From Phoronis australis (taxonomy: Eukaryota; Animalia; Phoronida), in the NCBI GenBank assembly GCA_002633005.1, contig NMRA01000298.1:233887-297886 (forward strand): DNA of 64,000 nucleotides, read 5' to 3'. This document shows, in pieces, positions 421-48,093 of the stretch. The notes beneath the pieces are model-generated. The model did no database searches, was not told the origin of the DNA, and worked only from the letters and a program-made list of their open reading frames with translations. Both the position numbers and the translations under genes were made by a program. The first letter of the stretch is position 1, and the number at the start of each line of letters is the position of its first letter.

Positions 421-619
421 CTTGGCCTGGACGATAATCATCTCTTGCCTTGCCCTTATACCACGCTATCTCTATTTTTCCTGGAGAGGGACACTCTTGG
501 TCGTTAAAGGTAAAGAACCATCGAGAGCAACAACCGCCGCAGTTGTAACCTGCGCGAATGACACCGCGGAATTTCACCCTCAACGAAGTGTAAGAGTATT
601 GCTTCTTGAAGGTCCTTGT
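421..619 (-). CDS. Copy A exon 4, CTHRC1 domain 1 core
   Basis: TRTFKKQYSYTSLRVKFRG...CGGCCSRWFFTFNDQECPSPGKIE; tttcag acceptor, gtgag donor. Confidence 0.88.
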
Positions 620-12000: not shown

Positions 12001-12076
12001 CCAGAAAAACTTAGAAACTTGAGCAGCCTTCGTACAGCATATTAATTAAATCAGTTTTTGGCCACACTAAGATTAA

Positions 12077-13185: not shown

Positions 13186-13312
13186 GTTCTCCCGTAATCT
13201 ACATGTAGAGTCCTTGTGGCTTTGTAGAATTATCGCCTTCGGGGCTAATGCCTCTAGGGCGATAATTCTCCAAAACCCACTCGGGCTCTTTATGTAGATG
13301 ACGGGGGATAAC
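13186..13312. repeat. ~127-bp imperfect palindrome (mini-MITE)
   Basis: cccgtaatctacat...agaattatcgcc versus ggcgataattct...atgtagatgacggg. Confidence 0.65.
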
Positions 13313-13369
13313 GCCATGTGTATGTATATGAATTACCATTAAAGGCAGGGATCATACAAACTTCTGTCA

Positions 13370-13900
13370 ATATGTAGAGCTGAGTGCATGAAAAAGTCTG
13401 GTTGTCAACCGACACTCACCTTGCCCGTTACAGCCGTTTAAGTAAAAAACATAACAAACTTCATTTTCTTGCTTACTTCTCCGCCTTTTGTTACAGATAA
13501 AAATATGTCGTCGCAGTAAACAGTACGCTCGTGACAAGCGCACTCGCCATTTTTTAAAAGTTTGCTACATCTCTTGTGCGGTGATGATAGCTCCGCAGCA
13601 GCAAAATTTGTTCTGAAATTCTGTTTGCTGATATCAAATTCTAATAACTTATTATGAAGTGAAACGAGCTCCGATAATTTGTTATGACGTGTACATGTAC
13701 GCAATCTTGTGAAAGAAGAACAGTTGATTGAAGAATTGGGAGAAAAAAAATGGCGTATTGGTAGCATAATAACGACAGAACACAAATTAACATCGGTAAA
13801 TAATGTAGCTTACTTAAGGAATAGTGCAGTTTTTAATGACACTAATTTTATGACAGATTTTTTCTGTTCAAAGGCCCATATCCATGCAAAGCCGTATGTT
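13370..13900 (-). mobile_element. Same family, partial inverted copy
   Basis: gtcaaccgacactcaccttgcccgttacagccgtttaagt is the reverse complement of the family core; boundaries approximate. Confidence 0.6.
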
Positions 13901-16900: not shown

Positions 16901-19900
16901 AAAAGTGCTTTCACTCAGACTTTTTGCATTTATAATAAATTTGGTGCACACTTAAAGCAGCATTAAACTCGCCTTTCATCGGAAAGACCAACGTTTGAAA
17001 TTGGTTTTAAACTGTTTTTAGTAAAATTAAATATGATTCCGGGGTTTCAAAAGAGTTGATAATTAGTGATGATCTATCTGCAATGAGATGCCGCAGAAAT
17101 CGCTTAGAATTTGATTCCATAGTTTATACCCATCTGTTGCTGATTGGGTTACGGGAGCAAAAATGAGCATTCGTTCATAGCGATATCAAAGATAACAAAC
17201 TTGCATCATTGTTTTCATTAAAGTTTAACTTTTATGTAGAAGGCATTTAAGGTACAATTATTTGATAGCTTAAACAAAGCAGAATCGTTAAGAACATGTT
17301 TTAAAGGTATTTAGAAAACCATATTCAGAAATCACATGATCTCAAAAGTTTATTTGAATTCTTATTTGACATTGCTGAGATATCAGATGATAACCCGGTG
17401 TTACCAATATTTTTGACATTTTCCTAGGATTACTCGGGACCTAAATCTCCACTGAAATAGCAATTTTCGAAGAAAGTATCAACATTCAACAGTTGCACTT
17501 ACTTCCGCCGGTGTCGTCATTTGAGTGCAAGTGAGCGTCAGTAGCACCTAAGGTGCCAGGGCTTGTACAGGTGTGGCCGTCGAACAGGACCGTGTAGCGC
17601 AGGGCCCCGTGGCCGTGCAAGTAGATATTGGCCAGGAACAGAATTCTTATGGCCGTGGCCGGCTGCTCTTTTGTAGTGGTAGAATGTCTAAAATTAATAG
17701 CTTATTGGTGTTATTCACGGTACAGCTTTAAAGTGTTCTAAGATTGACAGAGGTGTCACGCCAATCATTTCTGGTGAAAGAAATGAGCCACGTAAATACG
17801 AATCTTACATTGTGACAGTTTCGGTAGTAGCCTGAGTCTGAGCCAGCTTATTTAATGATTTTATATTACACAGATTCGATGCGATAGGAATCAAGAGAAA
17901 TTACAAATGAAAATACACTCCTTTTATTCATATAGTGATTAATTCTTCTTCCATGCTTGTGTCAGAAGATATTTTTATAAATGACCTGCGTCGAAGTTGA
18001 CGTGTGTGACTCTTAGGTGAATTTGCTTTCGCCCGAAATGACCTATTTTGTACATGCGCTCTCTAACTGAATGGATATCCAAATGGTAGCAACATGGGGC
18101 ATCTTATTTTTTATACGAGAGCGCGTCTGTTGATTTGTGTAACTAACGTGAACGTTTTTGTTTTGTTTACGGAACATAATACGCGGGATCAGATGAGGAC
18201 TGTTTTACCAAACAAGTAATGGCAGTGAGATCTATTTGGAGGTCACGTTTAATACATGCAAGTGTGACTGTACGTTTACTGAAAATATTTGTAAAATAGA
18301 AGTAGCTGAACATTTTCTAAAGTTGATAAATTTTGTAAACGATTATTCGGAGGACGTTTATCTTCCATAATATTTTATATTCTACAATTTAAGCATATAC
18401 ACCTGTATCACTGATGAGATGGGATACTGTATGTGTTCTGTTTGCCAAATAAAGATGTCTAAATGCTTTGGTAGTTGAACATGTACATAATCATGACCAT
18501 TGTCTTTTCCGCTTACACCAGTCCACGTGAACTACTGGATACTGAATCGAGATAATTTCGGGCAGGTTCCCAAGAAGGCAAAATGCAATCCATTGCTCAA
18601 TGTCAATATATTTAATAGGACACAAAAAGGCCAAATATCCAAACAGCTTACCATTTCTTGATCTGTTGAGAATTTAGTTGTCATGTTCGTGAGGCATGTG
18701 TACAAGTGAGTTGAGACCACTTCATTTTTTTCTAACATACATTTTAAATTCAACTCGGTGCAAACTTTTCCTTAGCAACAAAAAGTCTCCAATTTTGACG
18801 ATGGAATAAGGCACATACCTCATAACGAGGTAATAAAATGCTTCCCTCAGAGTGGGCCCGAAAATGGCCCTCAATTTCAGAGTCCGATCTAAGAAACCAC
18901 AAGCAAATTTCGGCATATCTACCTACATGCGGCCACCTACATGTATGTGTTGAATGAAGAAAATTATGTAGCAATGACAATAACACTGCAAAAAATCAGT
19001 AGCACGAATAAATGGCATCCCTAAGTCAGACCATCTATTGAACTTGAACAAGAGCGTTGTCTGGACTATACATATACCTCGGACTGTGCCAGTTTTGGTC
19101 AAAGCAGAAAAGCGGCAGTCATGACTGGCCCTCTCTACCAGGAAGGAAATTATCAAAATTTTGGACACTCGGATCTCTTCGGCTACCGGCCTTTACGATA
19201 GTAGTTTTGTCTCTTGGCTACTTCGACCACACTGGACACCTCGGCCTCGTGTTTAGTCTAATATGAGATTGGTTGGCGACGAAGCACCCTTTCAGCCATT
19301 GGGGGCAAAAATCCCTTGCAGGCACATTCAAAAAGATAGGTAAAAACAGTTTAAAATATGGTTTCCCATTTCTCAGTCGTCTTTTTGGAGTAGAAATGAG
19401 GCACAGGATATTGTTATGGAAAACGCAGTGGCACCTAACGACGTCACCATTACAACCAAAGCCATTGTGATTGCGCATGACTATACGATGTATAGTTACA
19501 CTGTATTTGACACTAAGCGCTACTGCAAACGGTAACATGCAAGCTGATCCGTCGTCTTCACAGCATAGCTCATAGCTCAACACGGTTTACCAGCACATAA
19601 AACGTACCCATGATGTAAATTGTAGATCATTTTTTTCTTTCCTGGCTTTATTAAATCGTATTTCACTTGATGGATTGGTAAGTCCCCTCCGTCTTACATT
19701 CTTTCATGGTATAACAGGGTACGTTCATGAGAGATAGTTCATTGACCACTAAAGCCATATTGTTGTTTGAGTGCCCTACACTAAGCAACTAGAATTCAAA
19801 ATGTAGCTTGTTAGGTAAAATTAAGGATTATGACTTTTAAGCCAGGTAGTAGTCAATGCCATCCGACATGCTAATGATATTGACGAAGAATAAAAACTTA

Positions 19901-20110
19901 AATGATGACAACGTCCGAGTCCCCACTTGAATCTGGATATCTTTTGAAATGTCTGGTGCTTGGATTTATTAACTCTTGTATGTAATACACTGATAACAAC
20001 CTTTGTAATTCACGATTTCTCACTTGGACAATTTCCCAATCGCGGTCGTTATCTTGATCAGAGGTGGCTGAACACCACAGTTGAGTATGGTTCATCTTAA
20101 TACACTCACT

Positions 20111-20948
20111 CATAGGTGGATTTAGGGGGGCCCAGCCCCCCCCCCCNGGGGGGGGGGGGCTCAGATCAAAATTCAGTTCGGAACACGGCGCAATCGTAAC
20201 GGAACTATGGCAAAGTATAGACTCCCGCGACATGTCGGGAGACCGGCAGTGGCGCTGCGCACTACGACTGCGTTTCCGTCGTCTGCTTCACTTTTAAATG
20301 AAGAAATTTACTTCATTTTTTAAAGAAAATAGAATATGAGTGACCATGAAAAACAGAAGCTATTGGTAAGATGTGAATTTTAACCGAAGCTGTTGTGAAT
20401 CACTCAGAAACTCATAATTCTCTCTTTGTCAAACCTTAACTTAAGACGAGTTCCAAAGCAATTGCGTCATTCATTAATGCCAATACAAAAATGGATTTGG
20501 TCTTTTGGGCATTTGAAGACTATTTTAAATACAACATTTTTTATACGAACTGGTTGCACAAAATATAAACAAGTAATATTACAAAAAGAAGTAGGTTTCG
20601 CCCGCATACTCTGTGGACCATAAATAAGTAAAGTCTCTTAGTATCAAATTACAAGTGAAGTCCTGGTGGTGCAGTGGTAAAGCACACGCGCTCTATACGT
20701 CAGGTCTGGAGTTCGAGATTGTGTTGAATGCAGTTTTTCGAGTTTGACACGTTCTCCGTATTTTTTTGTTGTTTTTTTGGAAAATACTTCAAGAATCAAG
20801 GGAAACGCTTGATTTTAAGAGAAAAAACAGAAATTCCCCCTCCCTACCTCCCCCCAATCGGTGCTATGCGCATCTACAATGTTGCTTTGCGCAAATGTTT
20901 ACAGACAAAATGTTGGCCCCCCTTTTTGATATTCTAGATCCGCCAGTG
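20111..20948. mobile_element. TIR element inserted in the FN2 exon of pseudogene B
   Basis: Ends CATAGGTGGATTTAG and CTAGATCCGCCAGTG; flanks tcact/ccact; the FN2 coding sequence continues on both sides. Confidence 0.75.
20660..20730 (+). repeat. tRNA-derived (SINE-head-like) fragment
   Basis: A-box-like TGGTGCAGTGG and B-box-like GTTCGAG; acceptor stem not intact. Confidence 0.45.
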
Positions 20949-23900
20949 CCACTGTACGTCACGGCCTTGTAAACGAACGGAAACGTGCACGGTGATCCAT
21001 CGAGAATACCGACATAAGTTGGCAGGTTAGTTTCTGGGAATTAAATGTTTTAGAAACATTATACATGTAAGCAAGAGTACGTGGACGCTTTAGTATTTAT
21101 GTATCAGGCGTCATACACATACTTCCAGTGAAATTCGTTGTCAAGGTTTAGCAGTCAACTTGGCCAAATACATTTTAGTCAATGGCCTGTAATAACATTA
21201 ATTCACAATCAATTAATTAATAAAAATGATTGGAGTGTCTGTAATTACGAATGGCTATTGAAACGCTCTTCGCGGTCCACGAAGCGAATGTTTGATTCAG
21301 ACCAACAAAAGTTACATGAACATTTAGCACGAACATCATTATGACGTATTGGACCCAATTTGACGACATGTCTATTCTTATTTCCACCTCCAAATAGCGA
21401 CATCTACTGCCATTACACGTGCTCCTTACTCTGACAAGAAGTGATTTCTGGGCTTGAAAACAATTGTCCGTTTGTTTTTCTTTGAAATAATTTTTGGCGG
21501 ACAAATTGACACCCCGTAACACTCGAAGTTTACAACCTAATCTTAAGAAGTAACGATCCGATAATTCTTTAAAAACCCTGAAATCACACTCATTTGACTA
21601 AGGGATAATTTGAGACCAGTTTCATAACGGAAAGTAGTCTACACCAAAACTCAAGCTCTGTAAATTCCGTTACCACTCAAAAGTTTCGAAAAAGTTTAAG
21701 AACTTACGATTTTTTACTAACCACAAATTCAAGCTGTACTTGCATTTGGCTTTGTCAAAGCAAAGACCGAATTAAACCTTATATTTTCATCAAATCGGAC
21801 TTCTGTGATACAGGTGATCTACCGTTGAGGGATTCGATTTCTGTTACAAACAACACTATCAATTTATTCAATGAATGTGAAATCATATTTGATCTTGAAG
21901 AAATTAACAGTTCTTTGTTTTTGGCTTCGACAGCATTTGGATATTACATTATTGTGGTTTACAATAAAGAGCGGTATATGGCTACACAGACTTGTGAGGC
22001 TTTGATAGAAAGTGTACAAGAATTGCCGTGGCCAGGTTTTGGTGCATACAAGACATGTCTATGCCGGTCTTATGTTCACTTTTAAATTCATATTGAAAAT
22101 TGTTGTTAAATAATATGCACAAATCCCTAAAATTCCTTGTTCCTTGATTGAAATAACATTCTAACCCCATATAGTTCTCACTGTGTTTTTTATGTGACTT
22201 GTTAAAAGACTGTCTTTAAGACAAAAATGACTTTTTTAACAACTTAATATAGCTATAAACATCTTCTCGTTTCAAAGGGGGACCTAAACCTCTGCAATTC
22301 ATTGAGGAAATGCTAATCGTTGTGTTGCAATAGGTACTGAAATTACCTGCAATTGCGATGCGCTGAAACAAAGAGGAGCCATAAGAACTGCCTGAGGCAA
22401 CGGAGACCACTAGGTATGACGGTGAGTACAGTTACACACAAACTGAAACTGGGGATTAACAAGCACATGTATAAGTAAAACTACAAAGTGAATCCAAGTC
22501 AAAACGGCAAAAGGTGCGCAGCGTAGTGTACTCACTAAAAACCTATAGCATGGCTCCATGTCATCGGTCCATAAGAATACAAGTCATGTACCTATCACTC
22601 ACAAGAGTTAATCACTTACAGACAGGGGATCACCACTCATCAGTTATAGTTACTGAATGTGCCAGTTGGCCTGTTAACAGGGTACGTATTGAGTACGTAC
22701 TCTGAGAGTACGCCCGTGACAACCGAATGTACATTCTGTAGTGTGTGGAGATACGCACTCCAGTGATACTCAACAATACGATTTAATGACAAGAAATGAT
22801 TAAACTTGATTCATAAAAAGTCACCGGGAAAGTTCTTGTACCTTATGTAGTACATGTAGCTAACAAGCAATATTTTTCACTGTCACTGGAACAGTCCATC
22901 AATTCCTCTATGACCCATGACAGCGTTTTTCCGTTCAGTGACTTTACCAGACGTAGGGGGTTGTGAGCGTGTGATTACATCTAGCTTCTTTATTAACTGC
23001 CAAGCACAATCTTTTGTCTGTTATGACAAATTATCTTCCAGGCTTATTTCACACCACGACTGAACTCCGTCAAACCCAGAGTGAATTCTTGGTACATTCG
23101 AAAAGAATAGATTATCTTAACTTCGGTTGCAGTTGGAAGATTTTGGAGATTCAAAAGCTAAACATGATCACTATTTGAAGAGGATTTCAAAAATGCTATT
23201 GGTTCATGTTCAAATATGCTATAACTTAACTTTTATTTTTAACAGCACAGCCCAGTAAGGTTAGATACGATCTTATTGAAGATTAGAGCAATTATCGAAC
23301 AAAAGAGAGCTGGCCAACCAACCATGAATGCTAGAATGGAGTTTATCAGTCGTGTAAAATATTGGCTACAGGGGTAAACTTCCAAACTTGTTGTTGGGCT
23401 ATAGACTCGAACAAGTTGGGAGCAACGGGAGAACGCCGTAATGCAGTTTGTCGCTATTCGGCGAAGGTTTCATTTTCAAACCTGTTGCAGCCATGAGTCA
23501 CTGGAACAGAACGTTGCTAAGCACAATGCTGTCCTTAGAGAAATCTTCACTCACACAGAAGTTTGTGCCTTTCAACACAAACCGAGCACACCAAACAGTC
23601 TCAATTTGCTTGTATAAATCGAACTTTGCTGTAATGGGCACAAAATTTGCGAAATACCCATTTTCGGAACTGAACGAGGGACTTCTCGAAGGAAAAAGCT
23701 TGATAAAGGGAGTATTTCGTCAAGTTGGAAAGAATTAAATACATCGAATGCCACTTAAGGCCGGTGTCTCTCCATGCGTAGAAGCGCAGAAGTATATATA
23801 TCAACGTGATTGATGTTTTAGTCATAATTTTCTGAACAGATTGCGTCTCTACTGGCCGGCAAATTACTGCGTCGTGAATGGTACACCAGATTTATTCACT

Positions 23901-25083: not shown

Positions 25084-25229
25084 TTAGTTCACGGTGAAGA
25101 CTTCGTTGACCACCAGACGACAGCTGGTATCCCAGCACGTGTAGGCCTCGTTGTAGCTGTGACCAGGACACGTCTGCACGTAAAGTCTTATGTTATAGCT
25201 TCCTGCTGGAAGACTGCAGAACCCGCCAA
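25084..25229 (-). CDS. Copy C exon 12 (terminal), end of CTHRC1 domain 3
   Basis: (F)GGFCSLPAGSYNIRLYVQTCPGHSYNEAYTCWDTSCRLVVNEVFTVN-TAA; not in the ORF track. Confidence 0.85.
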
Positions 25230-28200
25230 CTGAAAAAAATGTACATGTAGTTATACCATCTGCAAACCATGATGCAAATAACAGCTCGTCCCTCGTTTCC
25301 TTATGTTGATGTAAGACTTAGTCAAACATCTGCAATACTATAGATTAAAGATATCAAATGCTTACATTTTGTCAAAGTACATGTGTAGAGAATCTGAAGA
25401 ATGTTTTTTTTTTTTTTTGTTTTTTTATCAGTTCGTCAATAACTGAGTGACTTCGCCATTTATATTTAGTAAAATTGAGCACGGACGAAGATACATTAAC
25501 ACCAAAACAACAGTATAAGCGACTTAGTCAAACTGATATTTGGTGCAAACGTGCTCAATAAGATCTCTACATTACCATTCCTTTTCGTTGGTTGCAAAGT
25601 CTGAGATTTTTCCTTAAAGAAATAAAAGTTGTATTTTGATATCCCCCATGCAAAAGTGGAACACGGTAAACACATTTACTACAAGTTTCGGAGAACATTG
25701 CAATTTTGTGGAACCTACTTAACCTTCAGCCAATACCTGAAGCCCTACAGTATATAAAATATATTAAGTGACCTTTACAGGGGAATCCTGAAGAAACCTC
25801 GTCAATTGTTACTCTAAAAACCGCTATTGTAATCAAAAGACGTATATTTTGCTTAGCAACATTTTCATCTTTTAATATTGGTAAAACAAGTAACCAGCAC
25901 CAGGCTATACAGCTGTAGCAAGAAAGTGTAAGTAAATATCAGTGCTGTTTCTGGATCTTCTAAGCTTATTTTCCTCAAAAAATTGATGCTGCCAATCCCT
26001 CATTCCTTTCCTGATTACTAGACCAAAGCAAAACTCAGCAATCATGTCAATTAAGGTCATTTAAAACCTTATTTAGTGGTCTCCATTCTCACTCGTATAT
26101 AAAAAGAACAGGCTTAATTTGTGTCAAATAATAAAAGTACTGAAAGAAAAATATGAGGGCTTATAAAATATACTTTATACTATTGTGCCATTATTATTAT
26201 TACATTAAAATCTTTTAAGTCAAACTTTTATTTTAAAAAGCTACATAACCGCTAATTCGATGTTAATCAAAACCTTTTTAGATGAAAACCACACTCATTA
26301 CCTCAAAAATGCTTTTTTCGATTTATCTTTTTGTTTGGTTTCTATTTCAAATCATCTGGCAAAACTTAAAATAGTTTTGTAAAAATAACAGTTGTATTAG
26401 ACTTTGTTACATTATGCAAAAACCAGGCCTTTATATCACAAATCCATCACCTCTTTTTGAGATTGATAAATAAATATTAATTTTGGAAATTTTCAGCGGG
26501 ACATGCAAAAATCCGGTCAAATTCAATTAATTATCCTGTGAAAACTTGTTTTTTCGTCAGAATAACCTATACATGTCTTATCCAAGTTATTTATTTCAAC
26601 ATTCACTCGCAAAATCAACTGAATTTGCAGTGCGTAATTAACTTAACTATAAGTTGATTATACGTTAATTTTTTTACAGTTCCCGGTCCGATACGAGGGA
26701 TCAACCGTAGGTAAACAGTTCACTGTTGTACACAACACAAGCCGAGGGACTGATATGAAACCACTCAATGAATGAAAGAACAGAGAGTAGGCAACATACG
26801 GAGCTGCTCTCTGCCTAGTGGGAAATTCGATTTCAGTGGCAGCCCCGTAACCTTTGGCCTCGGATAAGTAGTGAACAGATGTTGAGCGGCTGCAAGGTGG
26901 TTCTGCAAAATCTGTCTTTCTATCTGTGCGGTATGTATTTCATATTTGAAGTTCCCCCAGTATGAAGATAACGTATTTTGCTAGAGAAATGTCAGACGTT
27001 GTCAGAATGGCCCATTTTTGAAATAAGGTTTGAGACATCCTTAAAGCTTACCCAGGGCCCAGAGAATTCTGCATACAGCTCAAGTCAAGGAGCATACTGA
27101 GTCACCGACTGAAAGAGCTAGCGCGAAAGTCAAAATTTACTGATCATTTATTTCGTTTTTTTGGCGTTCAACTGACATTGCGCTATGAGCTTACATGTAG
27201 CTTCCTGTCACTTGTGGTAGCTGATTGGTTGAGCGTGTAGAGCTTCATTTGTGTCATTCCTTATTCAATGAGATTCAAAGGAACCGTTTCAAACAACTTC
27301 CATGCACTTACAAGTAGAAGTATGGTGCTGGTTATCATCGACATTGTCCGTTCTGTGGAACAGTCTTTGATAGACAAGTGTGGAAATTTTTCCAGGCGAA
27401 GAACATTCGGCCCCATTAAAGGTCAGATACCAACGGGCGCAACCGGGTGTGTCGTACGTAGACTCAAGTTGCCGTAAGTCGCCGTTGTACTGAACAGATA
27501 GCAGACTTTGAGATGACTTCTTATTATAGGTGACCGACTGCGGGAAAAAGAACACATTCTTCGGTCAGTAACATTAAATTCAACATGTTCTGGAAATGTA
27601 GGCCAATACCCCCACAGCTTATAGTTGATAGGAACATCAACTTGAAACTGGCAAATGTCGATCAATTAAAAAACCCGGCAATCTGCTTTTCCAAAATACT
27701 ATGAAACGGGATCCTTCTTTTGATACATGTGCAGTATGTGAATAGATGACTTGTACTTCGTTTAGGCCAATTAATCAGACATACTGTGTGCGTTCTTTGG
27801 TGCGAGAATTTCGCGAAAACGCTAGAAGACACATTACTTCGCGAGACAACACCAAGTAGGCCAATTACAAGCAAAGGAAGTTGTCACACTAGTGTCCCTC
27901 AGCGAGATTCTGCAAACTACATGGAAGCATGCCGAGAATTCTATGATGACACTTGGCGTACCTTAATATCCAACTGATGCCTGCTGGTTTGGATACTGGT
28001 CCAGTTATGTTGTACACCAAGCAGAATTATTGAGGAGCATATTGTGGCGACATTGTTCAAAAGTTCATGTTGAAAAATTCACATTCCTTTCCCATTTTCA
28101 AACTTCAAAAGCATACTGAATTAGGTGTAATTATCACGAACTACTCAAATGTGCTATTAAATAAAAAAATTTAAAGCCCCGAAAATCAAAAGTATTCTTT

Positions 28201-31200
28201 TGTCGACCCCAGTGCAGTTTTTCTGATTGTCTAGAGAACGATAACATCAGCAACCTGAGACGACGAAATGAACAAAAACAGCATTGTGTTTTTGATCCAT
28301 GCCGGCCAAATTCGAGGTACCCAAACCAGTCCAATGGCACAATCTCAATCGTTGAGGGTGTCAACGCAGGATATCTTCCATGGGAACTCTACCGGTTCCC
28401 CTAAAAGATCCAATGAGTAAACCCAGTTTTCAGTTGGATGCAGTTCACACACCTACTCTAGTGTTCTACGCTCGAACCAATCATTTATTCATTCAAGAAG
28501 ACCATCATAACGAGACATAGATTTACGAATATGCATGTCGTACCGTGGATATCATTAGATCTATCTAACACAATGACAATGGTGAAAAGGGGGAGAAAAA
28601 GTCTGTGTTCAACACTTACAATACTTCCGATATGCCCGTTGTCTGTATTGTCGTTCAATGACCTCCACCACCATTGGTGAAAATTGTACTCTGGCAGTCG
28701 CTGGATGCTGCCGTCACGCGCCACGACTGTCATCAATCATGAACAACAGAGTAAGGGTTACATAAAGGCTACTTCATTCCATTCGGTTTAATATACTTCT
28801 GCACAGATATTAGTACCTGAGTTCCGCGAGCTGCCTGTTAATCTATTGCACTTTGAGAGGAAACTTTCCAATACGTAAGATTAGATTTTTCACGCGGGTA
28901 CGTTTGCGAGTGACTCTGAGAGTTACTGAATTCTTCAATTCAATGTGCTTATAAAGACATTCACAAGTTTGAGTCTTTAACCGTATTACGAACAACGCAA
29001 ACAGAGCGAGCGAGAGAAGAAACATTTTTATTTACTATGAGGTCATTTCTACAAAACCTATAAAGACTGCAATAGTTGTGGTGAAAGAACTACAATAAAT
29101 TAACAAAAAATTAATTCTGGAATTTATATGTTGTTAGACAAATATACCAAATAATGGAATTGGAAAGACAAAACATTGTTGCTGTGATCACTGAGAACAG
29201 AGAGGGATTTACCTGCGCTGATGTCTAGGTCATAGCGTATCTCCTCGACAATAACCCTGTTTCTCTGATTCCAGCCTGTGTAACCATCCATGCTGCCATG
29301 GGACCTGGAAATGTGTATCTCAACAGACCTCCGTCCCGCTGCGATGTTATTGCACAGACCATCAACTGAATAAAAAAGTGTTTCCGTTGTATTGAAGTTT
29401 AGAGTTATCGGTAACACGCGTAATTGATTTCCATAATACATGCGTGCACCCAGTGGGGGCTCTGAGGGCTCGAACGAGCCCCCCCCNCTACAGAGAAGCA
29501 AAAATTCCCAGAAAACAAGAAACAGTCACCAAAAAGGCACAGTTCACAGTTCTAAAGGTGGTACCCCGTTTTTTTTTGTTATTTTTTCAGTCCTGCCGCC
29601 TTTTTCGCCAGCAAAAGATCCACTTCATCAGAAATTCGAGCCCCCCTCCATATTAAAGGCCGGGTGAGCGCATGAATACTGCTGTTTCATCAACATCATT
29701 AAACAAACGTAATAGTTATCGTGTTTACCACTTGGCCAACGGACGAAGTGTAGCATTGAAGTGCAGCGGCACTGCAATCTGCCACAAATTTAAGTAGCCG
29801 TCAAACAGATTCAGTTTGAAAGAAATGCGAATGGTTGGCAGGTCTTTGGGGACACGTTTTAAATTTTTTTGAAGATTTGCTTTCCAAATCTAATGTCAGC
29901 GTCTATCGGAAATTGTGAGGGAGTAGTTTCGGGTTGAAAACGGTCAATTTTACATGTTGGCCGCCACGTGCTGAATCGCCTGAATAAAATTTAAAATAGG
30001 TAACATTGCACATTTTAGCTTGAGTTACATCAATATCATCAAGTCTCTTCATTTAATTAAATATTTAAGCAATCAAATATTTGCAATGAAAGAACGTACT
30101 ATTTACGGAGTTAGGAATCGTATTGAAATTGATTTTAGATGATACTTCAATTTGTGATTTGTTAGGTCACGTGGTCATGCATGTTTAGTGAAAATGAGCC
30201 AAAATGAATAATCGTACCTAGCAATATCTTTAATAACATATTTATGTTAAATGAATTCAAGATCGAAACACTCTATTATTTCTTTCTTCATCTTTCAAAA
30301 ATAATTAAATTATTTCTGTAGAAAGCATCTAAGCACAACCAATTGATAGCCTCTTAAACAAAGCGGAACTTTAAGAAAGGATCCATAAGGTATTTAGGAA
30401 ATCAACAAAAATTTCGTTGATGATAGCCCAAAGTTTTGCTTGTATTCTTATTTGCCATTGCTGAGATTTGATGTTCCTAGGGGTGCTCGGGACCTAAATT
30501 GTGCACTGATAAAATGCGTAAATCTGCACTTTAATGGCAATTCGCAAAGAGCGTACAACATTCATCAAGTGTACCTACTTCCGCCAGTACTGTCATGGGT
30601 GGCGTCGACAACATTTGAGTCCATGTGAGCATAAGTACCGTCTATCGTGCCAGGGCTTGAACAGTCGTGACCGTCAAACTTAACCGTGTACCGCAGGGCG
30701 CCTTGATGGTGCAAGTAGATATTGGCCAGGAACAGTACTCTTATGGCCGTGTCTGCTGCTCTTTTGTAGTAATAGAATGTCTGGAATAAATAGCTTGTCA
30801 GTGTTCCTAATGATACAGCTTTAAAATAGCCTTTCATTGACAAAGGGCCCTTATCAACGAATTCTAATGCGAGAAATGGGCTGTGCAAATGTGATACCTG
30901 CAAATGCGTACTTTACTGTAAATTTCTGCAAAGTAGAACTAGCTTAAAATTTTCTAAAGTTGGCAAATTTTGGTAACAAGAATTCAGACAACATATATCT
31001 TCCTTAATGTTTGGTATTCTATTATTTAAGCAGACACCACTAATGAGCAGGGATGCATGTTCTCTTTGCCAAATAAATACGTCTAAGTGCCTTAGTAGTT
31101 AAAAACTCACGTAAATATGACCACTGTCTTCACCCCTTGAACCAGTCCAGGTGAACTGCTTGATGTTGAATCGTGATAATTTCGGGCAGGTTCCTTGAAG

Positions 31201-34200
31201 GACAAATACGATCAACTATTTAATTTCAAAACAAGGCTCTATATCCGAAAGGGTTGACCAGCTCTGGATCTTTTGAGAAATCAACTTCTAACATTCGTGA
31301 GACCACTTTATTTTTATCTAACAAATGTTTTAAATTTAACTCGGTACAAACTGTCCTGGCGACAAAACTTTGCCAATGTTGATTGTGGAATAAAGCACTT
31401 ATGTCATAACCAGTAACTAAAGTTTCCCCTCGCAGTGTACTCCAAAATGACCCTCATTTTCACAGCTCAATCAAAAAAAGTTCAAATAAATTTCAAAATT
31501 TCTACATACATGTATATGCCTAGAATGATTGTTTAATCAAGGACATTTATAATTTTAAACGTATGAACAATAAGACCCCAAACATGTACATGTACAGTAG
31601 CACGAGTAAATTGGCGCCTGGAAATCAGATCATTTATTTAACTTGAAGAATATTTTATGTGATATAGCTCGGACTATTCCAATTTTGGTCAAGGTGAAAG
31701 AGCACAATCATGACAGACCTGCACCGCCAGAAAGGGATAATCAAAATTTTGGACACTCAGTTCTGCTCTGTCATCTTCTTTTACGGCAATACGTGTCTTA
31801 TGAGTGCTATGACAACATTGTACACTTCGGGCTCGGAACACCCCATGTTTAGTACAGTATCAGTTTGGTTGTCAACGAGGCACTCTTTCAGGCAATGTGC
31901 GCAGTAAGTCCTTGCAAGCTATTCTCTGAATCATGTTTGCACGTTGACAAAAAGAGGCGAAAACAAATTAAAGAGGATCCGCTATCGGATTTTTCACTCT
32001 TATATATGAAGCAGAGTCCTTGAAGACTAATGAATTGTTATGGAAATCGCAAATGCGCTTAACGATGCCGCTAATATAGCCAAAGTCGTCGAGATTGCGC
32101 GTGACTAAGTATTTGCCACTAAGGGCCAGTTCAGACGAATACACATGTATCTGCAAGCTGATCCGTCGTCCTCTCACCTCATTCCATAGCTCGACAAGAT
32201 TTACCCGCACACAGTATAATCGGCACTTGATACAAAATAGAAAAACAATTTGTGGAAGTCCATCAAATCAACGAATAAATGTGGTGTAGCAGTACCTAAT
32301 ATCTCACCATTTGTCCAACGAACCACTTCAGTTGTGTACCCTCGGCAAAAAACACAATTCTGGTGGTTTTATCAAAAGGAACGCTCCACTGTATTTGAAC
32401 CTCGTCCCGATATGCGAATCAAAGAAGCCAACAAAGATGGGAGCAGTTTAGCTAAGCACTACTGAATTCAAAGTTGAACTTGAGACCGATAACAGAAAGT
32501 TTCTTGATTAAATGAATTTTGATAAGAAGAAGAAATATTCCCGAAAAAGATGACACCGCTGCTTTTCCGTAAAAATGAACCCCGGAGCCCAATAATTTCG
32601 TTTTGGTCGGAAAGCAGCCAGTACCCGGTTGCATGAAACAGTCCCAAATAGGAACTCAACTAAGGTCCCCAAATCTAATCTAAGTTTGTGTACTTGTCTA
32701 AACATTGAAGAATGTCTTTTCTTATACTGTTTTAGTTTCATTACTAAGTAAATTTTTGGCTTTGATACAAAACGAGAGTGAATTCTACATGTACGTTGAA
32801 TTCTCAATATCATTGTAAATAAATATGGATGTTTTCATGAAGCACTCCTTATTTAAGGACTAAGTCTCTGTTCTTTTCAATGAATAAAGGGTTCAGATTT
32901 TAGATACATTATTAGAAAATGTCTTTAGCCAAAGAGAAGCTCATAATGAAGATAAAATGATAGAAAAACATTACATCTGGGAGTAAGGAACGACACAAAT
33001 ATGCAAAAGATTTAGGGACTTTACGCGAGTCCCTAATAGAGACTGTTTCATGCAGCCGGGCACAAGACTCTTAACGATAACCACAGGTGGGGTCACATCG
33101 AGTTACAGCATCTACATTAGAGTGAAGTTCTTGAGCGTGGAGCCGCAGAGCTTTCTCCCCTTTTCCTATCAAAAAGGAAGTACAACACCGGGCAGTAATC
33201 GAGATATATCAACTCAAAATGTCAAACATCTACTGCATAAAGTTCAAGTGGACACAACAAGACTAATGTTCTTTTTGGAATTCTAATCCAGTGTTGCATT
33301 GGGGAATAATCCACCTACCGATCCTCTAGTATGCTACAAATTACCTGTTCCTTTTGACATTTGCACACTGTTATGTGAATTTAGACTCGTCTTATGTCGA
33401 ACGGCGGATTTTGTGGTTGACATATCTGAAGTGTTTTCACGAGGTCCATATCCCCACCACGTCATGGGCGGAGAACGATACCGGACTAGGGGTCATATCA
33501 CCCCACTTATTTCAGTGCTGGGCCCCCATGGGCATGGTCTGCGCGCACCATGGGGAGCTGGAGGGCTAAAGAGCCCCCCGCACACACCTTTATTTCAGTG
33601 CTGCGCTGCCCATACACGTACTGTACATGTACATGTTCAATAGCCGGTCATAGCAATGCTGACCTTTGGGAAATTCACGTCTGTTGCGACCTACATACTT
33701 GATCTCGAACCCGCAGATGTTGCTTATCTGTTTTGCTCCTGAGTGTTAGAGGTACATGTATTTTCCGTCGGCACATCGGACTCCACGGTAACAAAACTGT
33801 CACGTTTTCAAGATGAACGGTAAGCAAACGACTAGTACTACTGTGTATATGTGAATAATGTTGTTGTCTCACCTGGGCAATTTCCCCATCGCTTGTCATT
33901 GTCGTAATTAGAAGTGATAGAACACCACGGTTGACTATGGTCGGCAGCAGTGCATTCACTATACGCGACACCTTTGTATGTGAACGGGAACTTGCATGAT
34001 GAACCGCCGCCATTCCCGCCGTATGTTGGTAGGTTAGTTTCTGCAAATGAAATGACGTAAAAAAGAACTGACCACATAGAAGTTTCTCTATCACTTGTGA
34101 CCTCCCAGTGAAATTCTTTGAAAAAAAAAGGTAATAGTTCTTAACACAAATTTAACCGTGAAATTTGGCAAATACAATGTATGTCAAATTATGAAGTATC

Positions 34201-37200
34201 CATGATAAAGAACTTAACAGTTGTGTGTAGAGATATTCAATCACTTTAACACATAGTAATTGCGACCAGGTAACAGTCACCTCTTAAGCAAAAAATTTCA
34301 AACCAATAGAAAGCCTCTTTAAAATTCCTGACTTTGTTTGAAACCGCGGGATAATTTACGGCTTTGGGTAGAAACCGCTGAGCTACACGACTCACTTCGT
34401 AAGGTCGAACACGCTCTTAGATCAATGTTGCTAAACATTTTCTGATAGCAGGACACACACACTGTTCGCGTTCGCGTGAAAGGCCCGGAGACATTCGCTA
34501 AATATAAAAATGCAAAATGCTACCAACAAGACGTCATCTTTTTGCACACTCACCGAATGACCGCCTGAGATCGTTTTCCTCAACCGTCATGGAAGCTCCC
34601 ATATTATTGCCCCATCCCGTATAGGAATCTGGTACACCATATCCAGAGCATCCACCCACGTTGAACTTGATGACTATGTCCCCAGTTTGTTGCAAATCAC
34701 AAATGCCGTCCACTGAAATGGATAGACAAAATTTCAAGCTCCGTTCTTTTGAGATTTGAAAGGTGAAAGACTGTGCTTGCTCAATAGATCACTGTTAAGC
34801 TGTCACTTTTTTTGCTAAACGCGTCCCACTCCTGGCTGTTCGTGTCAATCGATGCTATTAAGTCACAGCATATGCTTCAAGTAGTCCTTGTGTACATGTA
34901 AGTGGTTCACTTTGTCCTACGAGTCTGTAAAAGATCACATTTAATGACAAAGTCCGGCCTTATAATGACATACATGTAGTCTCACTGAGCACTTCGGTAT
35001 TCAACGAGATTCCGAATAACGCCACCTTATGCCGGCATTGCTCAAAATGAGACGGTAGCAAGTGGCGCCACTCTCTCCTTAATCTCTTAGCTATACCAAA
35101 ACATGCCACCAACATGTCATTGTAAAGTTTGTCCGCACCACTTTTCTTTGAGATTTTTCGGTAACTCTCCCCCCTCCAAGAGCAGAATAGATTCACCAGT
35201 AAATAATGAAAGTATTGGTGGTTTCCGTGGCACTGGACATTTATTTATTCTCCTAATATACACTGGTACGGTCGCTAAGTTAATAGCGATATATTAGCCG
35301 CTCAAATTCAAATGATATCATCAATATGAAAAGGACGATGTACTCTTCAAAACAGTTCTCACCTTGGCCTGGACGATAATCATCTCGCCCCGTGCCTTTG
35401 TACCACACTAATTCTATTTTGCCTGGAGAGGAACACTCTTGGTCGTTAAAAGTAAAGTACCATCGGGAGCAACATCCGCCGCAGTTGTAACTCGAGCGAA
35501 CGACACCGCGGAATCTGACCCTCAATGATGTGTAAGCATACTGCTTCTTGAAGGTCTTCGTCTGAAACATTGCCATTGTTTTTCACAATTAGCACATCAC
35601 CCGCAACACCTCGGTTATTTTCGTTACCTTAAACTCACCTCCAAGGTGAACGGTTCAAGTTATGCGATTTCAACCATACGGTAAGTTACAGTGTATTTCA
35701 CTAACAAGCTGGAGACAGTTTGGTCCCAGGGATGACCTTTGCACATGCGCAGATAACGTTCACCTTGGGAAATTTCAGGTTCCCTTGCGTTCCGAATGTT
35801 CATTTACATGTACAAAAGGGCGTTATTTATGGATTTTCAATATGTCCTTAAGTTTCATTATCCTGCTCATTGTTTTACTTGTCTTTTCTGTTTAGAAAAA
35901 AAAAACTTCTTGTGGCATAAATACAGTAACTATCTCCGTATCAAAGCTATTTATTCAGAGCCACAGACAACTATAACGTGAAAACTAATCAATTCAAACA
36001 ACTCCGTTAACATCGAAAGCTTGTTCGTGTTTGCTATGACAATTTTCTTTTTCATGGTTTGTATTTATGCTTATCAGCGGATGGATGGGAGTTATAAAAT
36101 AATGTTGGACGATTTGTCCCTTGAAATGTTTTCAGAGTTGAGAAACACTCGCGAAGGAGATGCGGCGAGACACATTAGCTGGGACAACGAAAGCAGTGCA
36201 TTTTATCCAGTAATTCCACAATTCAAACTTACCGAACAACCACTCTTTACATTTCCATTTTACCGCGCTACGCTCAATAGAACAAGAGCATAAGCCTACT
36301 TTCGAAACACCCTGGTGCTGTACGTCAGAATGAATTTTATAAACATGCGTTCTGATAAAATTGGCAGGCTAGGTTAGGATTAAAGTGTGAAGTTTTAGGA
36401 TTGGTCGCGAAATGGTATTGCAAACCACACTGACTTGTATGTTATGGACCCAGAGAGACGGAGAACGCAGCTGAATACGAAGTGCGGAAGGAATTGTACA
36501 TATTTTGTCTTTTGTCTGAACTTACATGTACAAGGAATTGTCCTACCAAACATTGAACTGGATAGTATACAAAATAAGCATTATCGGTGCAGTAATTCAT
36601 TCGATTGTAGATCGAAGCATTCATTTTCGTGACTCAAACCAGGAAAATGAAACCTAACCTTGATTTCCATAAGGGCTTAGGTCTGTGTGTCTATCGAAAA
36701 TTTTGCAACAAAAGGGTAGCCAGAGCGTCCCTTTATATTGTGCAACAAACCCTGAAACCGCAAGGAGTTTCTTTTAATCATTTTAAAGAAAAAACACAAT
36801 TCACTCGATACTCAAATCTACAGCACCTTGCTTTGTATTCTCCAACGTGTGCTCCGTCCCGGTTTCCATAAAATACCTGAGGGTATATGATTATGTTCTT
36901 GACGATAAACCAACAAAATTTTCAGGAAACGCGGCGTACGCACACATGAACGTAGCACCGAAATCATGAATACAGCTTCTGGCAATGACCTGTAAAGTAC
37001 GTTCACTGACGCTTGAACACAGTCTCGCAATCACAAAACACGGTTTAGACACCCAAACAGAATGTCTCCTGGACTCCTGTTATTAAGAATCATGTACACG
37101 GTTCCGCGAAGAGCCCATACATGTAAGTCTTGATTGCAGTTGCCAAAACTGTGATTGCGTCCAAGGAGCCGCGCTTTTAGAGTACGTAATCGTGGTGCTC

Positions 37201-40200
37201 TTCAAAGTCTGTGTGATGGGTTTTCAGGTCAGTGAGCCGTCATAATAAGAGCTGACACGTTCATGTACATATATGTCCATAGGCGCTTGCATCGTGTTGT
37301 TTCGGTAGCCTGAGCATACATGTATTCGTAAAATTCTCTCTCAAGACGACTTTTCCCGAATTACAGGGTCAACACAAAAAAATCATGGATGTCAATGCGT
37401 ATTTCGATTTCAACTAAACACAAATGGTCGTCTCCCTGGTAAACCAACACTTGTGCATTATGTTCCTTAGTCCCCATCAGATTACCTCATATATAACCGG
37501 AAATGGTATTTTCAAACCAAAAAGTGAGACGTGATTTTGTAATTTTGGGCATCTCTAAGAAATTATGCCAAGCTACAACCTCTACTTTTTATTTCTCTAA
37601 TATATCGTCCCTTTGCCAAACATATTTTCTGCGTCAATTTACACTACGTTTAAGGTATCGCCATCTGATGACTCGCCGAAAGACCTCAAACTATCGATGA
37701 GTTGTATGTTAAAAGTAAATTTCATTTCCATCAGTCGTTCGAATAACGGGATGGGTAAAGAACCCGTGCTATTTTTGAACCCTGAATCTTCGTCAACAGT
37801 AAATCTCAAATAATTCCAGAACCGCAAGTTGAAGCAAAAAAAAACCTTTTCCAGTAATTTGATAACTCTAAATGAGGTCTACTAACGCACAAAATTCCAA
37901 AAAGATTTGTTGAAAGAAGTCAAGACGACACGAGCAGTCACATAAAAATTGCAGGCATCAAAAAATCTCTATTAACTTAAAAAACAGGACTTTGAGAGAT
38001 ACATGGATGACACGACGATTCAAAGATGGCATCCAAACGCCACAATCGGTACTAATCCCGCCCCCTAAATAATGTAACCAATTAACAAAGGCGCTCTGAT
38101 GGAGAGAACCTTGACGAGACGACTGAAGAAGGGAGTGGGATGAAAAAGACAAAGACTGAAATTATTTTACGTAATATTCACATTGGAACTGTGCTCATGT
38201 TGCCATCTAAAAACGCTGACATACTCCCGCGACTGTTTAAACGTGCCAGATTCTAAATGGAGCATAGGGAAAATAGGGATTTTCTAAACGTACCGTATTG
38301 TTTCAGACAGTTTACTTACCATGAGGTTTCCGTTGTCGGTTCCGCTTGCGAAGTTCGTGTAATAATAGTGTCGGATATTGGCAACCGGTACTTCGTCACA
38401 TTCTTTAAAGGGAGCTGTATTTGAAAAGAAAACTGTTAGTGGAATGATGCCATTCGTTGAGATGCCACGACTTGGTTTAGACAATTTGACGATCTAAGAT
38501 ATTACTAAGAGACATTCTAACTGGTTTCTAATAAAAAAGTCATCCCACTGCTATTATATAAAAGCGTGATTTCTTAGTCTGACCGAAGAGTTACTCCCTC
38601 TGTCTGTATCTTACCCACACAGACACCTGCGTTGTTGGTGCAGTCTTTCATGCAGGCGTGGTCTCCATCCGCGCAGTTGGTGTTGCTACATTCGGTGCTG
38701 GAATCCGCCTTGTTATTGGTGTTTCCCTGAGAACAAAGAATTTTTGACGCTACAATGTACATGTATGTGAATGTAATCAAACCACTTTAAATCAAACTTG
38801 AATTAGACTTCTTACCCTCTCTCGACACACAGTATGCAGCTTTAGAGGCTGGGGGATGTTCTCCCACAGACTTCCTCAAAATTCGTCAGCAAACCTATAC
38901 CTAAGCGGATTTTCCATCAAAAATGTGGTTTCCACTCCACAACAACCCTGCTAAAACAGTGTCTTAACCGACATTGTGTTTACGTTTCCGCAACACTTAA
39001 GGACAAAATGAAGACATGGACAAAGCCCATGGGACGATGAAAAAACGTTTTCACATATGCAAATTGCAATTAATTAGTGGCATATATAGCTAAGAGCCCA
39101 CTGTAGGTTGATAAGTTTCAGGAATGGTAACGCTCAAATATCTAAAAAAGAAGTACCAAAAAATTAAAACACACCTAGTATAAGCACGGTTTACACTAAC
39201 AAACGCTTCGTTTGCAAACACCACTCGTGCCAGCAACAAAAAATGCCAAACCCGACAAGCTGGTTTGCTAATTTGAAAACTACAGATTTTGGTAAGAAAC
39301 CAATGAACAAACAGCTAAAAATCGTGTGACATCACGTATAAAAACGGAAGTCTCCATGAGAGACTAGTTTTTAGATGCGAAACAGATCCTTATTCGAGAA
39401 TACGAGAAACATCAAAATCTGCACAACTCTCTTCACCTAAAGCAAGCATGTTGCAGATTATGTCATAGTTCGTTTTTCAACATACATGTGGCAATATCTG
39501 AATTTTTAATCAATAAAAATAATTGTCAAAAACACAACAATTGGTAAACTTTAATAACTTCTTCTTTATCTCTTTATTTACAATCTCTAAAGTTCCTAAT
39601 AAAATATTACTATTATTCTCGTTATATTTATCGGCACTCTTACACGTAATTCGGATGTTTAGTGACAGCGTGTCATGGCCGTAGATGGCGCAATTTGGAC
39701 CCGGAAATAAGTATAGACATGCTCTCACACAGGGTTCAAAATGTCATGATGACCTCAAAATGGGAGGCTATATATTCCTATATCGTTCTCATTATCGCCG
39801 TCGTCAAAATCATTAAATTGTAAATAATCATACTTGTGACTTATTCCTATTAATTTTACACTTAGCACCTAAGCTATATATAATAGTGATATGTAATTCC
39901 CACAGGGCAGATACATGTAAGCCAAAGCTATTCACTGGTTTACTCTTAAATCAGTTTGTAGTTTTTCCCAACCAGGTAATGAACTGATGTTTATTAAGTT
40001 AAAACAATCAATCTAAACCAGCAAAGTATTACAAACTTTAGGTAGCAAGCCAAAGTCCGTTTGATGCTGTTTGGCAAAGTTTACGAATGGTTGCAACTTA
40101 CATGTATATAGCAATAAGACCAGAGAACACAATGTGATGAGTTTTCGAGTGTCAAGTGATTGCGTCATTTTTTATGTTAGAAGATACATTCTCTAAAGGG

Positions 40201-40758
40201 TAAAAATGCACCAAAACTTATTTATACGAAATACCGATATTCTACATTTCTTTGAATTTGAAAGATTTTTTCATCTGATCAGACGTGGTCACCTGCATGT
40301 TGTCATATCTGAGCAATGGCTGCGCATATTTGGAGACCGATACAATTTTGATATAATAATATTCAAGTACATACTCTGTCGGATTCAAAGTTGCCTATTC
40401 GGATAGTGTTTCTTAAATTTCCTCCCATGGTTACAACATTTCCTCGAGACTCCATCTGGTGGAAGCTTTCCTGGGATAAGTAACATAAACCATTATCTTC
40501 TTCGTAATAAGCAGAGACGCAAACTGTATTTCTCCTGCAGTACACAGCACATTCTAACTGGCTTCTAATACCAGTTAGTTTCCCATAGAATGACGGTGAA
40601 AACGAACTCGAAATATTCGCCACACTAGCGGTAAATCCGGGCCTCAACACAGCGCATGTTTCGATTCTTTCTCCAAACAATGTTCCGGATCCAGAACCAA
40701 AAAATAGACAAGTAAAAACAGCTGCGGTACGAAGAGGCATGGTGGTACGTGCCGTCAT
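25084..40758 (-). CDS. Copy C (complete, 12 coding exons): secreted PAN + Cys-rich + 3x CTHRC1-C-terminal-domain + FN2 protein, ~677 aa
   Basis: Exons 40758-40375, 38726-38615, 38414-38320, 35561-35363, 34712-34554, 34040-33873, 31193-31111, 30780-30579, 29365-29213, 28726-28620, 27537-27312, 25229-25084. All have GT-AG boundaries and compatible phases, summing to 2034 nt with no internal stop. Motifs RWY(F/L)TFN..EC..P, (V/I)DG.C and TGW....VEE match the CTHRC1 C-terminal domain. Confidence 0.88.
27312..27537 (-). CDS. Copy C exon 11, CTHRC1 domain 3 core
   Basis: SVTYNKKSSQSLLSVQYNGDLR...GCARWYLTFNGAECSSPGKI. Confidence 0.88.
28620..28726 (-). CDS. Copy C exon 10, start of domain 3
   Basis: VVARDGSIQRLPEYNFHQWWWRSLNDNTDNGHIGSI. 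Confidence 0.85.
29213..29365 (-). CDS. Copy C exon 9, end of domain 2
   Basis: (I)DGLCNNIAAGRRSVEIHISRSHGSMDGYTGWNQRNRVIVEEIRYDLDISA. Confidence 0.88.
29439..29674. mobile_element. CATGCG-ended MITE
   Basis: TIR catgcgtgcaccc / gggtgagcgcatg; internal gggctcgaa/gagcccccc motifs shared with 60691-60895. Confidence 0.65.
30579..30780 (-). CDS. Copy C exon 8, CTHRC1 domain 2 core
   Basis: TFYYYKRAADTAIRVLFLANIY...LRYTVKFDGHDCSSPGTIDG. Confidence 0.87.
31111..31193 (-). CDS. Copy C exon 7, start of domain 2
   Basis: (G)TCPKLSRFNIKQFTWTGSRGEDSGHIY; not in the ORF track. Confidence 0.83.
32621..33063. mobile_element. Harbinger-like MITE (second partial copy at ~49281-49600)
   Basis: TIR cccggttgcatgaaacagtc / gactgtttcatgcagccggg. 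Confidence 0.65.
33873..34040 (-). CDS. Copy C exon 6, fibronectin type II domain
   Basis: TYGGNGGGSSCKFPFTYKGVAYSECT...PWCSITSNYDNDKRWGNC fits the FN2 consensus; symmetric phase 1-1 exon. Confidence 0.92.
34554..34712 (-). CDS. Copy C exon 5, end of domain 1
   Basis: VDGICDLQQTGDIVIKFNVGGCSGYGVPDSYTGWGNNMGASMTVEENDLRRSF. Confidence 0.88.
35363..35561 (-). CDS. Copy C exon 4, CTHRC1 domain 1 core
   Basis: TKTFKKQYAYTSLRVRFRGVVRSSYNCGGCCSRWYFTFNDQECSSPGKIE. Confidence 0.9.
38320..38414 (-). CDS. Copy C exon 3
   Basis: (A)PFKECDEVPVANIRHYYYTNFASGTDNGNLM. Confidence 0.85.
38615..38726 (-). CDS. Copy C exon 2, Cys-rich module
   Basis: GNTNNKADSSTECSNTNCADGDHACMKDCTNNAGVCV. Confidence 0.85.
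40375..40758 (-). CDS. Copy C first coding exon: signal peptide + PAN/apple-like domain
   Basis: MTARTTMPLRTAAVFTCLFFGSGSG leader (start could be the second Met at 40740); SQLECAVYC....CVSAYY....GLCYLS. Confidence 0.82.
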
Positions 40759-47947: not shown

Positions 47948-48093
47948 CTAGTTGACGGGGAATACTTCGTTAACCAGCAAACGGCTAGTCGACTCCCAGC
48001 CAGTGTAAGCTTCGTTGTAGCTTTGTCCAGGACACGTCTGAAGGTATAATCTAATGTTATAGCTCCCTGCTGGAAGTTCACAGTATCCGCCAA
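47948..48093 (-). CDS. Copy D exon 12 (terminal)
   Basis: GGYCELPAGSYNIRLYLQTCPGQSYNEAYTGWESTSRLLVNEVFPVN-stop. Confidence 0.88.

Follow-up and report, generated by a model that had tools for sequence, protein, structure and literature searches.

How could a protein keep three C-terminal domains of the CTHRC1 type on one chain and do without a collagen helix? The question is raised by a minus-strand gene at 25084..40758 of a 64,000-nucleotide stretch of the Phoronis australis genome (GenBank assembly GCA_002633005.1, contig NMRA01000298.1, positions 233,887 to 297,886; hereafter the window). This is very likely one gene and not two. We propose that it encodes a likely secreted protein with a predicted single-chain head of the C1q/TNF type, and that this head would attach to extracellular surfaces, most probably to glycans; taken as a whole, this reading stands an even chance of being right. 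Four tandem copies lie on the minus strand: A, the gene analyzed here (B), a decayed copy C, and D. The count covers the 64-kb window only.

Splicing of the window letters joins 12 exons, 2034 nucleotides in all, into a frame of 677 amino acids followed by TAA, with no internal stop. All 11 introns run from GT to AG, and the single frame of about 677 residues put forward in a preliminary description of this DNA is thereby borne out. The intron phases are, in order, 0, 1, 0, 1, 1, 1, 0, 1, 1, 0 and 1. Every CTHRC1-type domain is built from three exons with an identical intron pattern, and a phase-0 intron lies close to the start of each; among Cthrc1 genes, an intron in the 5' part of the C-terminal domain counts as a conserved trait. 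An alternative donor for exon 8 at 30575 produces 12 stops and was discarded. In both this gene (40759-40765) and copy D (3777-3783) an AG ends 4 nucleotides upstream of the ATG, and this shared feature makes an upstream exon, probably non-coding, likely.

The domain content was read from a Pfam scan of 14 open frames, the frame of exon 7 not being among them, with cut-offs of 21.4 bits for PAN_1, 22.2 for fn2 and 27 for CTHRC1_C. All exons are on the minus strand. Exon 1 (40758-40375, amino acids 1-128) holds the ATG, a hydrophobic N-terminus which is likely a signal peptide, and a PAN domain above cut-off (26.4 bits; 25.8 in copy D). Exon 2 (38726-38615, amino acids 129-165) encodes a module of five cysteines with a weak EGF-like match (expectation value, E, 0.069). 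The first CTHRC1_C domain starts in exon 3 (38414-38320), whose frame has no Pfam match, has its core in exon 4 (35561-35363; 50.3 bits) and ends in exon 5 (34712-34554; 32.2 bits). Exon 6 (34040-33873), 168 nucleotides long and bounded by phase-1 introns on both sides, encodes an FN2 module with four cysteines (amino acids 317-372; 62.3 bits here and 69.1 in copy A). The second domain starts in exon 7 (31193-31111), continues through its core in exon 8 (30780-30579; 22.7 bits, under the cut-off) and ends in exon 9 (29365-29213; 27.0 bits). Exon 10 (28726-28620; 12.8 bits, under the cut-off) comprises a conserved linker and the start of the third domain, exon 11 (27537-27312; 53.4 bits) its core, and exon 12 (25229-25084; 23.4 bits, under the cut-off) its end together with the TAA.

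When the exon parts are joined, the three domains span amino acids 171-314, 376-513 and 526-677 and score 100.3, 82.8 and 109.7 bits, against 5.4 bits for the best of 500 shuffles. The profile behind these scores was built solely from 14 collagen-bearing CTHRC1-like proteins. Such a profile search had been named beforehand as the check on the CTHRC1 assignment, and the repeats match in it. The order is thus hydrophobic N-terminus, PAN, cysteine module, CTHRC1_C, FN2, CTHRC1_C, CTHRC1_C, which agrees with the domain calls and order first proposed. Pairwise, the three CTHRC1_C domains are 25-29% identical. In copies A and B the second domain (30579-30780, 29213-29365) is devoid of two cysteines which the third domain and the collagen-bearing proteins retain, and their joint loss suggests that one disulphide pairs them.

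The preliminary description had also stated that the protein carries neither a collagen run nor a transmembrane segment, and both statements hold. The 677 amino acids contain no run of at least three Gly-X-Y triplets (the longest run is 2), and the highest 19-residue hydropathy, 1.25, is located at the N-terminus, so that a membrane segment is absent. Judged by hydropathy alone, the putative signal peptide has a short core (amino acids 12-20) with a 9-residue peak of 2.42 at amino acid 12; the corresponding value in copy D is 3.49. Pfam C1q gave no match in the scanned exon frames or in the scanned homologues.

The arrangement of the three domains was approached through AlphaFold2 models of two homologues lacking FN2, P0002 and P0003, which stand in for the window protein. 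The P0002 model was built from 8 sequences and has a mean predicted local distance difference test score (pLDDT) of 69.3 and a predicted template modelling score (pTM) of 0.70, with pLDDT below 50 at 146 of 603 residues. For P0003, built from 9 sequences, the values are 69.1 and 0.74, with 117 of 611 residues below 50. Both models show three all-beta domains with confidence, and an N-terminal part, PAN included, with low confidence. Foldseek places 5hzf first for both models, and four or five engineered single-chain trimers are found among the top six matches; Cry1Aa (rank 2) and a glucosyltransferase (rank 3) were set aside, with a TM-score of 0.14-0.15 and a root-mean-square deviation of 25-36. 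We re-examined 972 Foldseek-ranked chains with VIA-align, which is not a free search. Five single-chain trimers rank first: the P0002 model (residues 163-600) matches 5hkj (chain residues 2-405) with Z 25.0 and a root-mean-square deviation of 3.6 Å over 338 residues, followed by 5hzf (Z 25.0), 4dou (24.5), 5kca (23.4) and 4zch (22.1). The next row, of single domains, falls to Z 10.7. The aligned length to the engineered trimers is 338-349 residues at 7-9% sequence identity, with 338-341 residues for 5hkj and 5hzf, both at a deviation of 3.6 Å. Since the match is rigid across three domains, the model packs them as in a C1q/TNF trimer, and the three domains of the window protein would then probably form a single-chain C1q/TNF-like pseudo-trimer. 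The preliminary description had suggested a possibly multivalent protein. In the two homologue models the repeats pack into one trimeric head, and they probably do not act as three separate valencies.

Taken singly, the domains of P0002 match the C-terminal domain of Bd2734 from Bdellovibrio (Z 10.4), PLTL (Z 8.3) and BC2L-C (Z 8.1) in VIA-align. The ESM Atlas gave no usable match for P0002. A sequence search of solved structures returned 6 matches at E ≤ 1, all within the PAN region, and none for CTHRC1_C.

Is the architecture peculiar to this locus? A profile built on exons 4, 8 and 11 retrieved 526 proteins at E ≤ 0.001, 150 of which were listed. From these, 28 were chosen by length or multiple matches and scanned for domains together with 5 further homologues, 33 proteins in total. 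The nearest named relatives are from a brachiopod and a bryozoan. Five loci of Lingula anatina, all annotated as 'uncharacterized', encode PAN with three CTHRC1_C domains (P0002, P0004/P0155, P0157, P0158 and P0176); the public records for this Lingula architecture are XP_013395411.1 (LOC106162620), XP_013412409.1 (LOC106175114), XP_013399537.1 (LOC106165752), LOC106180315 and LOC106178942. P0003 has the same composition in a continuous 611-residue frame on a 2632-nucleotide contig. The cysteine module of exon 2 is found in most Lingula homologues and is absent from P0155. The window protein is about 27-35% identical to these homologues and collinear with them, and the Lingula paralogues are 30-52% identical to each other. 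Exactly three domains are present in all seven full-length homologues profiled. Shorter or incomplete forms exist as well: P0159 has three CTHRC1_C domains and no PAN match, and P0007, P0009 and the Bugula protein P0013 are shorter; public records of partial or PAN-less relatives are LOC106180490, LOC106175063, XP_013388928.1 and Bugula KAF6026444.1. The window protein is therefore a member of Pfam CTHRC1_C and of a still unnamed family with PAN and three CTHRC1_C domains.

The FN2 module sets the locus apart. It is absent from all scanned Lingula homologues and from P0003, and among the 33 scanned proteins fn2 and CTHRC1_C occur together only in the sponge protein P0006. The alignment with P0002 runs from amino acid 30 to 674 at 30% identity, and the multiple alignment opens a single gap of 56 amino acids which coincides with exon 6. 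FN2 thus likely entered a gene that already had its three domains. The architecture had been called unrecognized at the outset. It turns out not to be a one-off, as five Lingula loci and P0003 carry PAN, the cysteine module and three CTHRC1_C domains; the part of that view which survives is the FN2 insertion, special to this locus.

The order of events was also examined with trees. Among 90 domains from 40 proteins, each of domains 1, 2 and 3 falls with its positional counterparts at moderate support, and these sets stand separate from the collagen-bearing proteins (99/96) as well as from two three-domain proteins of bacterial type. A triplication within this lineage alone was rejected with a second tree, of 41 rows, in which a clade of the window's six domains is excluded with an approximately unbiased test value (p-AU) of 0.0025. 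Grouping by position and rejection of the window-only clade together imply that the triplication is older than the split from the Lingula genes. The 90-domain tree omits two short domain hits, and both trees omit P0001, P0008, P0010, P0066, P0069 and P0111, which carry repeats of other families.

The comparison with known systems delimits what is new. As in the Cthrc1 family (PMC7058181; Pfam PF25815 CTHRC1_C), we find a homologous C-terminal domain, a hydrophobic N-terminus, a predicted C1q/TNF-like trimeric head and tandem duplication in invertebrates. In contrast to that family, the window protein has no collagen helix, three domains per chain, and PAN, a cysteine module and FN2 in addition. 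The definition given by Leclere et al. excludes it from the Cthrc1 genes, as it lacks collagen and has three domains. Their main text names collagen-less forms for choanoflagellates, dinoflagellates and bacteria and makes no mention of multi-domain animal forms (PMC7058181). The Lingula proteins and P0003 share the collinear PAN and three CTHRC1_C domains, the lack of collagen and the grouping of domains by position; unlike the window protein, none of them has FN2, and all are uncharacterized. In the homologue models, the arrangement resembles the engineered single-chain forms of C1q (5HKJ, 5HZF), adiponectin (4DOU), Cbln1 (5KCA) and APRIL-BAFF-BAFF (4ZCH), with three jelly-roll domains on one chain. 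Those are laboratory constructs, whereas the arrangement here is natural. Bivalve C1q-domain-containing proteins with three domains such as HcC1qDC6 (PMC5519582) are likewise collagen-free and lophotrochozoan and carry three domains in tandem whose fold is of the same class, but they belong to another sequence family (no Pfam C1q here) and the abstract does not name PAN or FN2; this is an analogy and not membership. Finally, P0006 of Oscarella pearsei (EP00118_P015510) also has CTHRC1_C repeats with FN2 between them, yet it has four domains, keeps a collagen stretch and lacks PAN. Its domains group with the collagen-bearing CTHRC1s, so the FN2 pairing there likely arose separately.

No published description of this architecture was found, within a limited coverage of subscription journals. 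The supplement of PMC7058181 yielded none of five accessions and five short motifs, a result limited by its format, as Lingula rows use gene identifiers there and rows are trimmed and line-broken. Word-indexed searches revealed no close relative: exon 11 against longer proteins matched none of 8 candidates, and a poorly aligned profile of P0003 and the 14 exon frames matched 2 of 5770. The novelty lies in the gain of FN2 and in a single-chain head predicted to occur naturally in animals; the individual parts are known, and public annotation already contains the core architecture.

These elements can be assembled into a mechanism. In CTHRC1 the collagen region brings about trimerization, and the C-terminal domain has been modelled ab initio as C1q-like (PMC7058181). 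In the window protein, one chain would supply all three protomers of the head, which would make the trimerizing collagen helix unnecessary; a single-chain trimer could account both for the loss of collagen and for the count of exactly three domains. Released from three-fold symmetry, the positions would have been free to diverge to the identities given above, yielding an asymmetric head whose three faces differ. The FN2 exon would have been added later, through exon shuffling into the linker between domains 1 and 2; modules with phase 1-1 boundaries are described as a mark of exon shuffling (PMC8001218). FN2 could then serve as a tether to matrix or membrane, and PAN might provide a second binding site. 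The ends of the chain lie at one pole of C1q/TNF trimers, so an insert could loop out.

The weakest step is the role itself. By analogy with mussel proteins with three C1q domains and with TNF-like lectins, the head may act in recognition or adhesion, and we regard a role in surface or glycan recognition as roughly evenly poised. HcC1qDC6, which has three C1q domains, is reported to bind bacteria, lipopolysaccharide and peptidoglycan (PMC5519582), and we count in favor of this role the tandem gain and loss of copies and the presence of TNF-like lectins among the single-domain matches. A bolder version is tentative at best: in an old, undescribed family of lophophorate-type animals, the CTHRC1 head may have become a naturally asymmetric trimer on a single chain, serving pattern recognition in the manner of a TNF-like lectin, with tandem arrays as the source of its diversity and tethering modules acquired through exon shuffling.

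If the lectin reading were true, the ancestral CTHRC1 head would bind sugars, and human CTHRC1 may reach its reported partners via their glycans. The natural three-in-one form would support a C1q-like CTHRC1 trimer from a separate angle, and a collagen-free single-chain construct could be a handle for a first CTHRC1_C structure and for a ligand screen. Furthermore, the locus indicates that the CTHRC1 head can lose collagen inside animals, and the phase 1-1 FN2 exon, missing in the homologues, offers a clean case of exon shuffling.

The gene is real, conserved and weakly expressed. The RNA data come from four runs bearing the same species label; for the three that consist of raw reads, the analysis covered 18-19%, or 1.6-1.8 billion letters per run, at very low depth and with a listing threshold of 3 reads for joints. 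Joints were listed for 3 of the 11 introns: 11-12 (4 reads in X2), 10-11 (3 reads in X1, with 7 other letters at the exon end) and 7-8 (2, 2 and 3 reads in three runs, with 3 other letters). In all of them the first mate is on the plus strand, consistent with RNA from the minus strand in a usual stranded library. The bins of exons 1-6 have a mean depth below 0.5 and no listed joint. An element of about 440 nucleotides in intron 6 (32621-33063), with 56-nucleotide terminal inverted repeats that are 80% complementary and a partial second copy at 49279-49582, attracts most of the mapped reads, nearly all of which continue into unlike sequence. It looks like a repeat of the miniature inverted-repeat transposable element type, widespread in transcripts.

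Several points weigh against the proposal of a single-chain recognition head on one transcript. On the structural side, the P0002 and P0003 models are not independent, as most of their alignment rows are in common, and AlphaFold may favor trimer packing for this fold; the fit of the FN2 insert with a trimer is inferred from models that lack FN2. A fold held in common says nothing about function: the lectins match no better than EDA, 4-1BB ligand and C1q, and a Z of about 8 is the background level of the tool. In the tree of 41 rows the support for the positional groups, which were named after the 90-domain tree had been inspected, is 95 for domain 1, 73-87 for domain 2 and 91 for domain 3, moderate in the latter two. 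With respect to function, invertebrate Cthrc1 genes expand too, up to 31 copies (PMC7058181), so copy number says little. The ratio of nonsynonymous to synonymous substitution rates (dN/dS) between copies A and B, about 0.11 over 548 codons, is that of purifying and not diversifying selection. At the depth and threshold stated above, no RNA joint was listed for the remaining eight introns, 5-6 and 6-7 included, so that the confirmation of junctions foreseen at the outset was obtained in part. The majority of the mapped reads are only 90-95% alike to the locus, and other alleles or close paralogues may therefore contribute.

Alternatively, the protein could use the same single-chain head to contact protein receptors, in the manner of vertebrate CTHRC1 or of TNF ligands, and act as a matrix-tethered modulator of Wnt/planar cell polarity or TGF-beta signalling. 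Its domains are genuine homologues of CTHRC1_C; the C-terminal part of CTHRC1 stabilizes Wnt-Fzd/Ror2 complexes (PMC7058181; PMC10193374), and Leclere et al. suggested a conserved signalling role (PMC7058181). Low expression, purifying selection and the matches to EDA and 4-1BB ligand would fit as well. Nevertheless, the three domains lie outside the clade of the collagen-bearing proteins tested, PAN and FN2 are foreign to CTHRC1, and copy turnover with a pseudogene, together with the divergence of the Lingula paralogues, fits a conserved ligand less well; we consider this explanation unlikely. A structural or adhesive component of tube, shell or basement membrane, with FN2 on collagen and cross-links through head and PAN, is a still more distant prospect. 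Matrix proteins often contain FN2, PAN and C1q-like folds, which speaks for it, but this FN2 lacks the Gly-Arg motif that we take to mark the gelatin-binding modules of matrix metalloproteinases. The heads of collagens VIII and X have the same fold (PMC7058181), and in Exaiptasia the adhesive pedal disc shows up-regulation of Cthrc1 genes (PMC6626399). Expression, from runs of unspecified tissue, speaks weakly against this reading: each listed junction has 2-4 reads in 1.6-1.8 billion letters per run.

Could the 677-residue product itself be an artefact of prediction, with exons 1-5 and 6-12 forming two genes, or FN2 being optional? No RNA joint is listed between exons 1 and 7, the decayed copy C comprises exons 6-12 only, reading through the donor of exon 5 meets a stop after five codons, and skipping of exon 6 would preserve the frame. 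Yet full-length homologues carry PAN and three domains on one chain, and exon 6 has neither its own start nor a signal sequence. Copy A conserves the donor of exon 5, the acceptor of exon 6 and the flanking residues, though not the intron between them; across junctions 5-6 and 6-7, 14 of 15 flanking residues are identical between the two copies. As a whole, the artefact reading is highly improbable, although skipping of exon 6 may occur. The spliced frame, the open exons 2-12 of copy A and the alignment with P0002 all support the one-gene view with which the analysis began.

The other copies complete the picture of the locus. Copy A (47948..63762, minus strand) has exons 2-12 in an open frame of 549 amino acids with FN2, and its exon 1 would fall past the end of the window. 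Its 10 introns are all GT..AG with phases as in this gene, its exon lengths are equal except for exon 5 (3 nucleotides shorter), and it is 78% identical to this gene in amino acids; the dN/dS of FN2 is 0.145. Copy D (421..3776, minus strand) consists of exons 1-4, open and heading toward the window start, with a strong hydrophobic N-terminus and PAN; it is 72% identical to this gene in amino acids, with a dN/dS of about 0.26 over 262 codons. Copy C (9466..21033, minus strand) is a decayed partial duplicate with stops, frameshifts, lost splice sites and an exon 6 interrupted by about 0.8 kb. In the five exons compared it is 81-85% identical in nucleotides to this gene and 68-78% to copy A, and its introns are alignable. 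No remnants of exons 1-3 or 5 were found between 3900 and 25050, and the one exon 4 match is a cross-match to exon 11 of copy C. The 12 other long open frames of the window have no Pfam match.

Beyond the family, CTHRC1_C domains occur in further combinations. P0005, P0011, P0033, P0075, P0106, P0012 and P0020 are of non-animal type and have 3 to 8 tandem CTHRC1_C domains; the repeats of P0005 run in threes, and P0075 clusters with proteins from Symbiodinium, in which tandem CTHRC1_C repeats are also present. In P0016, a Branchiostoma floridae model, CTHRC1_C is fused to folate-receptor-like repeats, and in P0098 to RING and TRAF zinc fingers; both may be gene-model fusions. Two repeats were noted within the copies. 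An intron of copy A contains a degenerate A/T-rich tandem array (61850-62464) of 15-20-nucleotide units with a palindromic core, and a 330-nucleotide repeat lies in and beside copy D at 1060-1383, 1981-2302 and 3972-4300, in alternating orientation and 76% alike.

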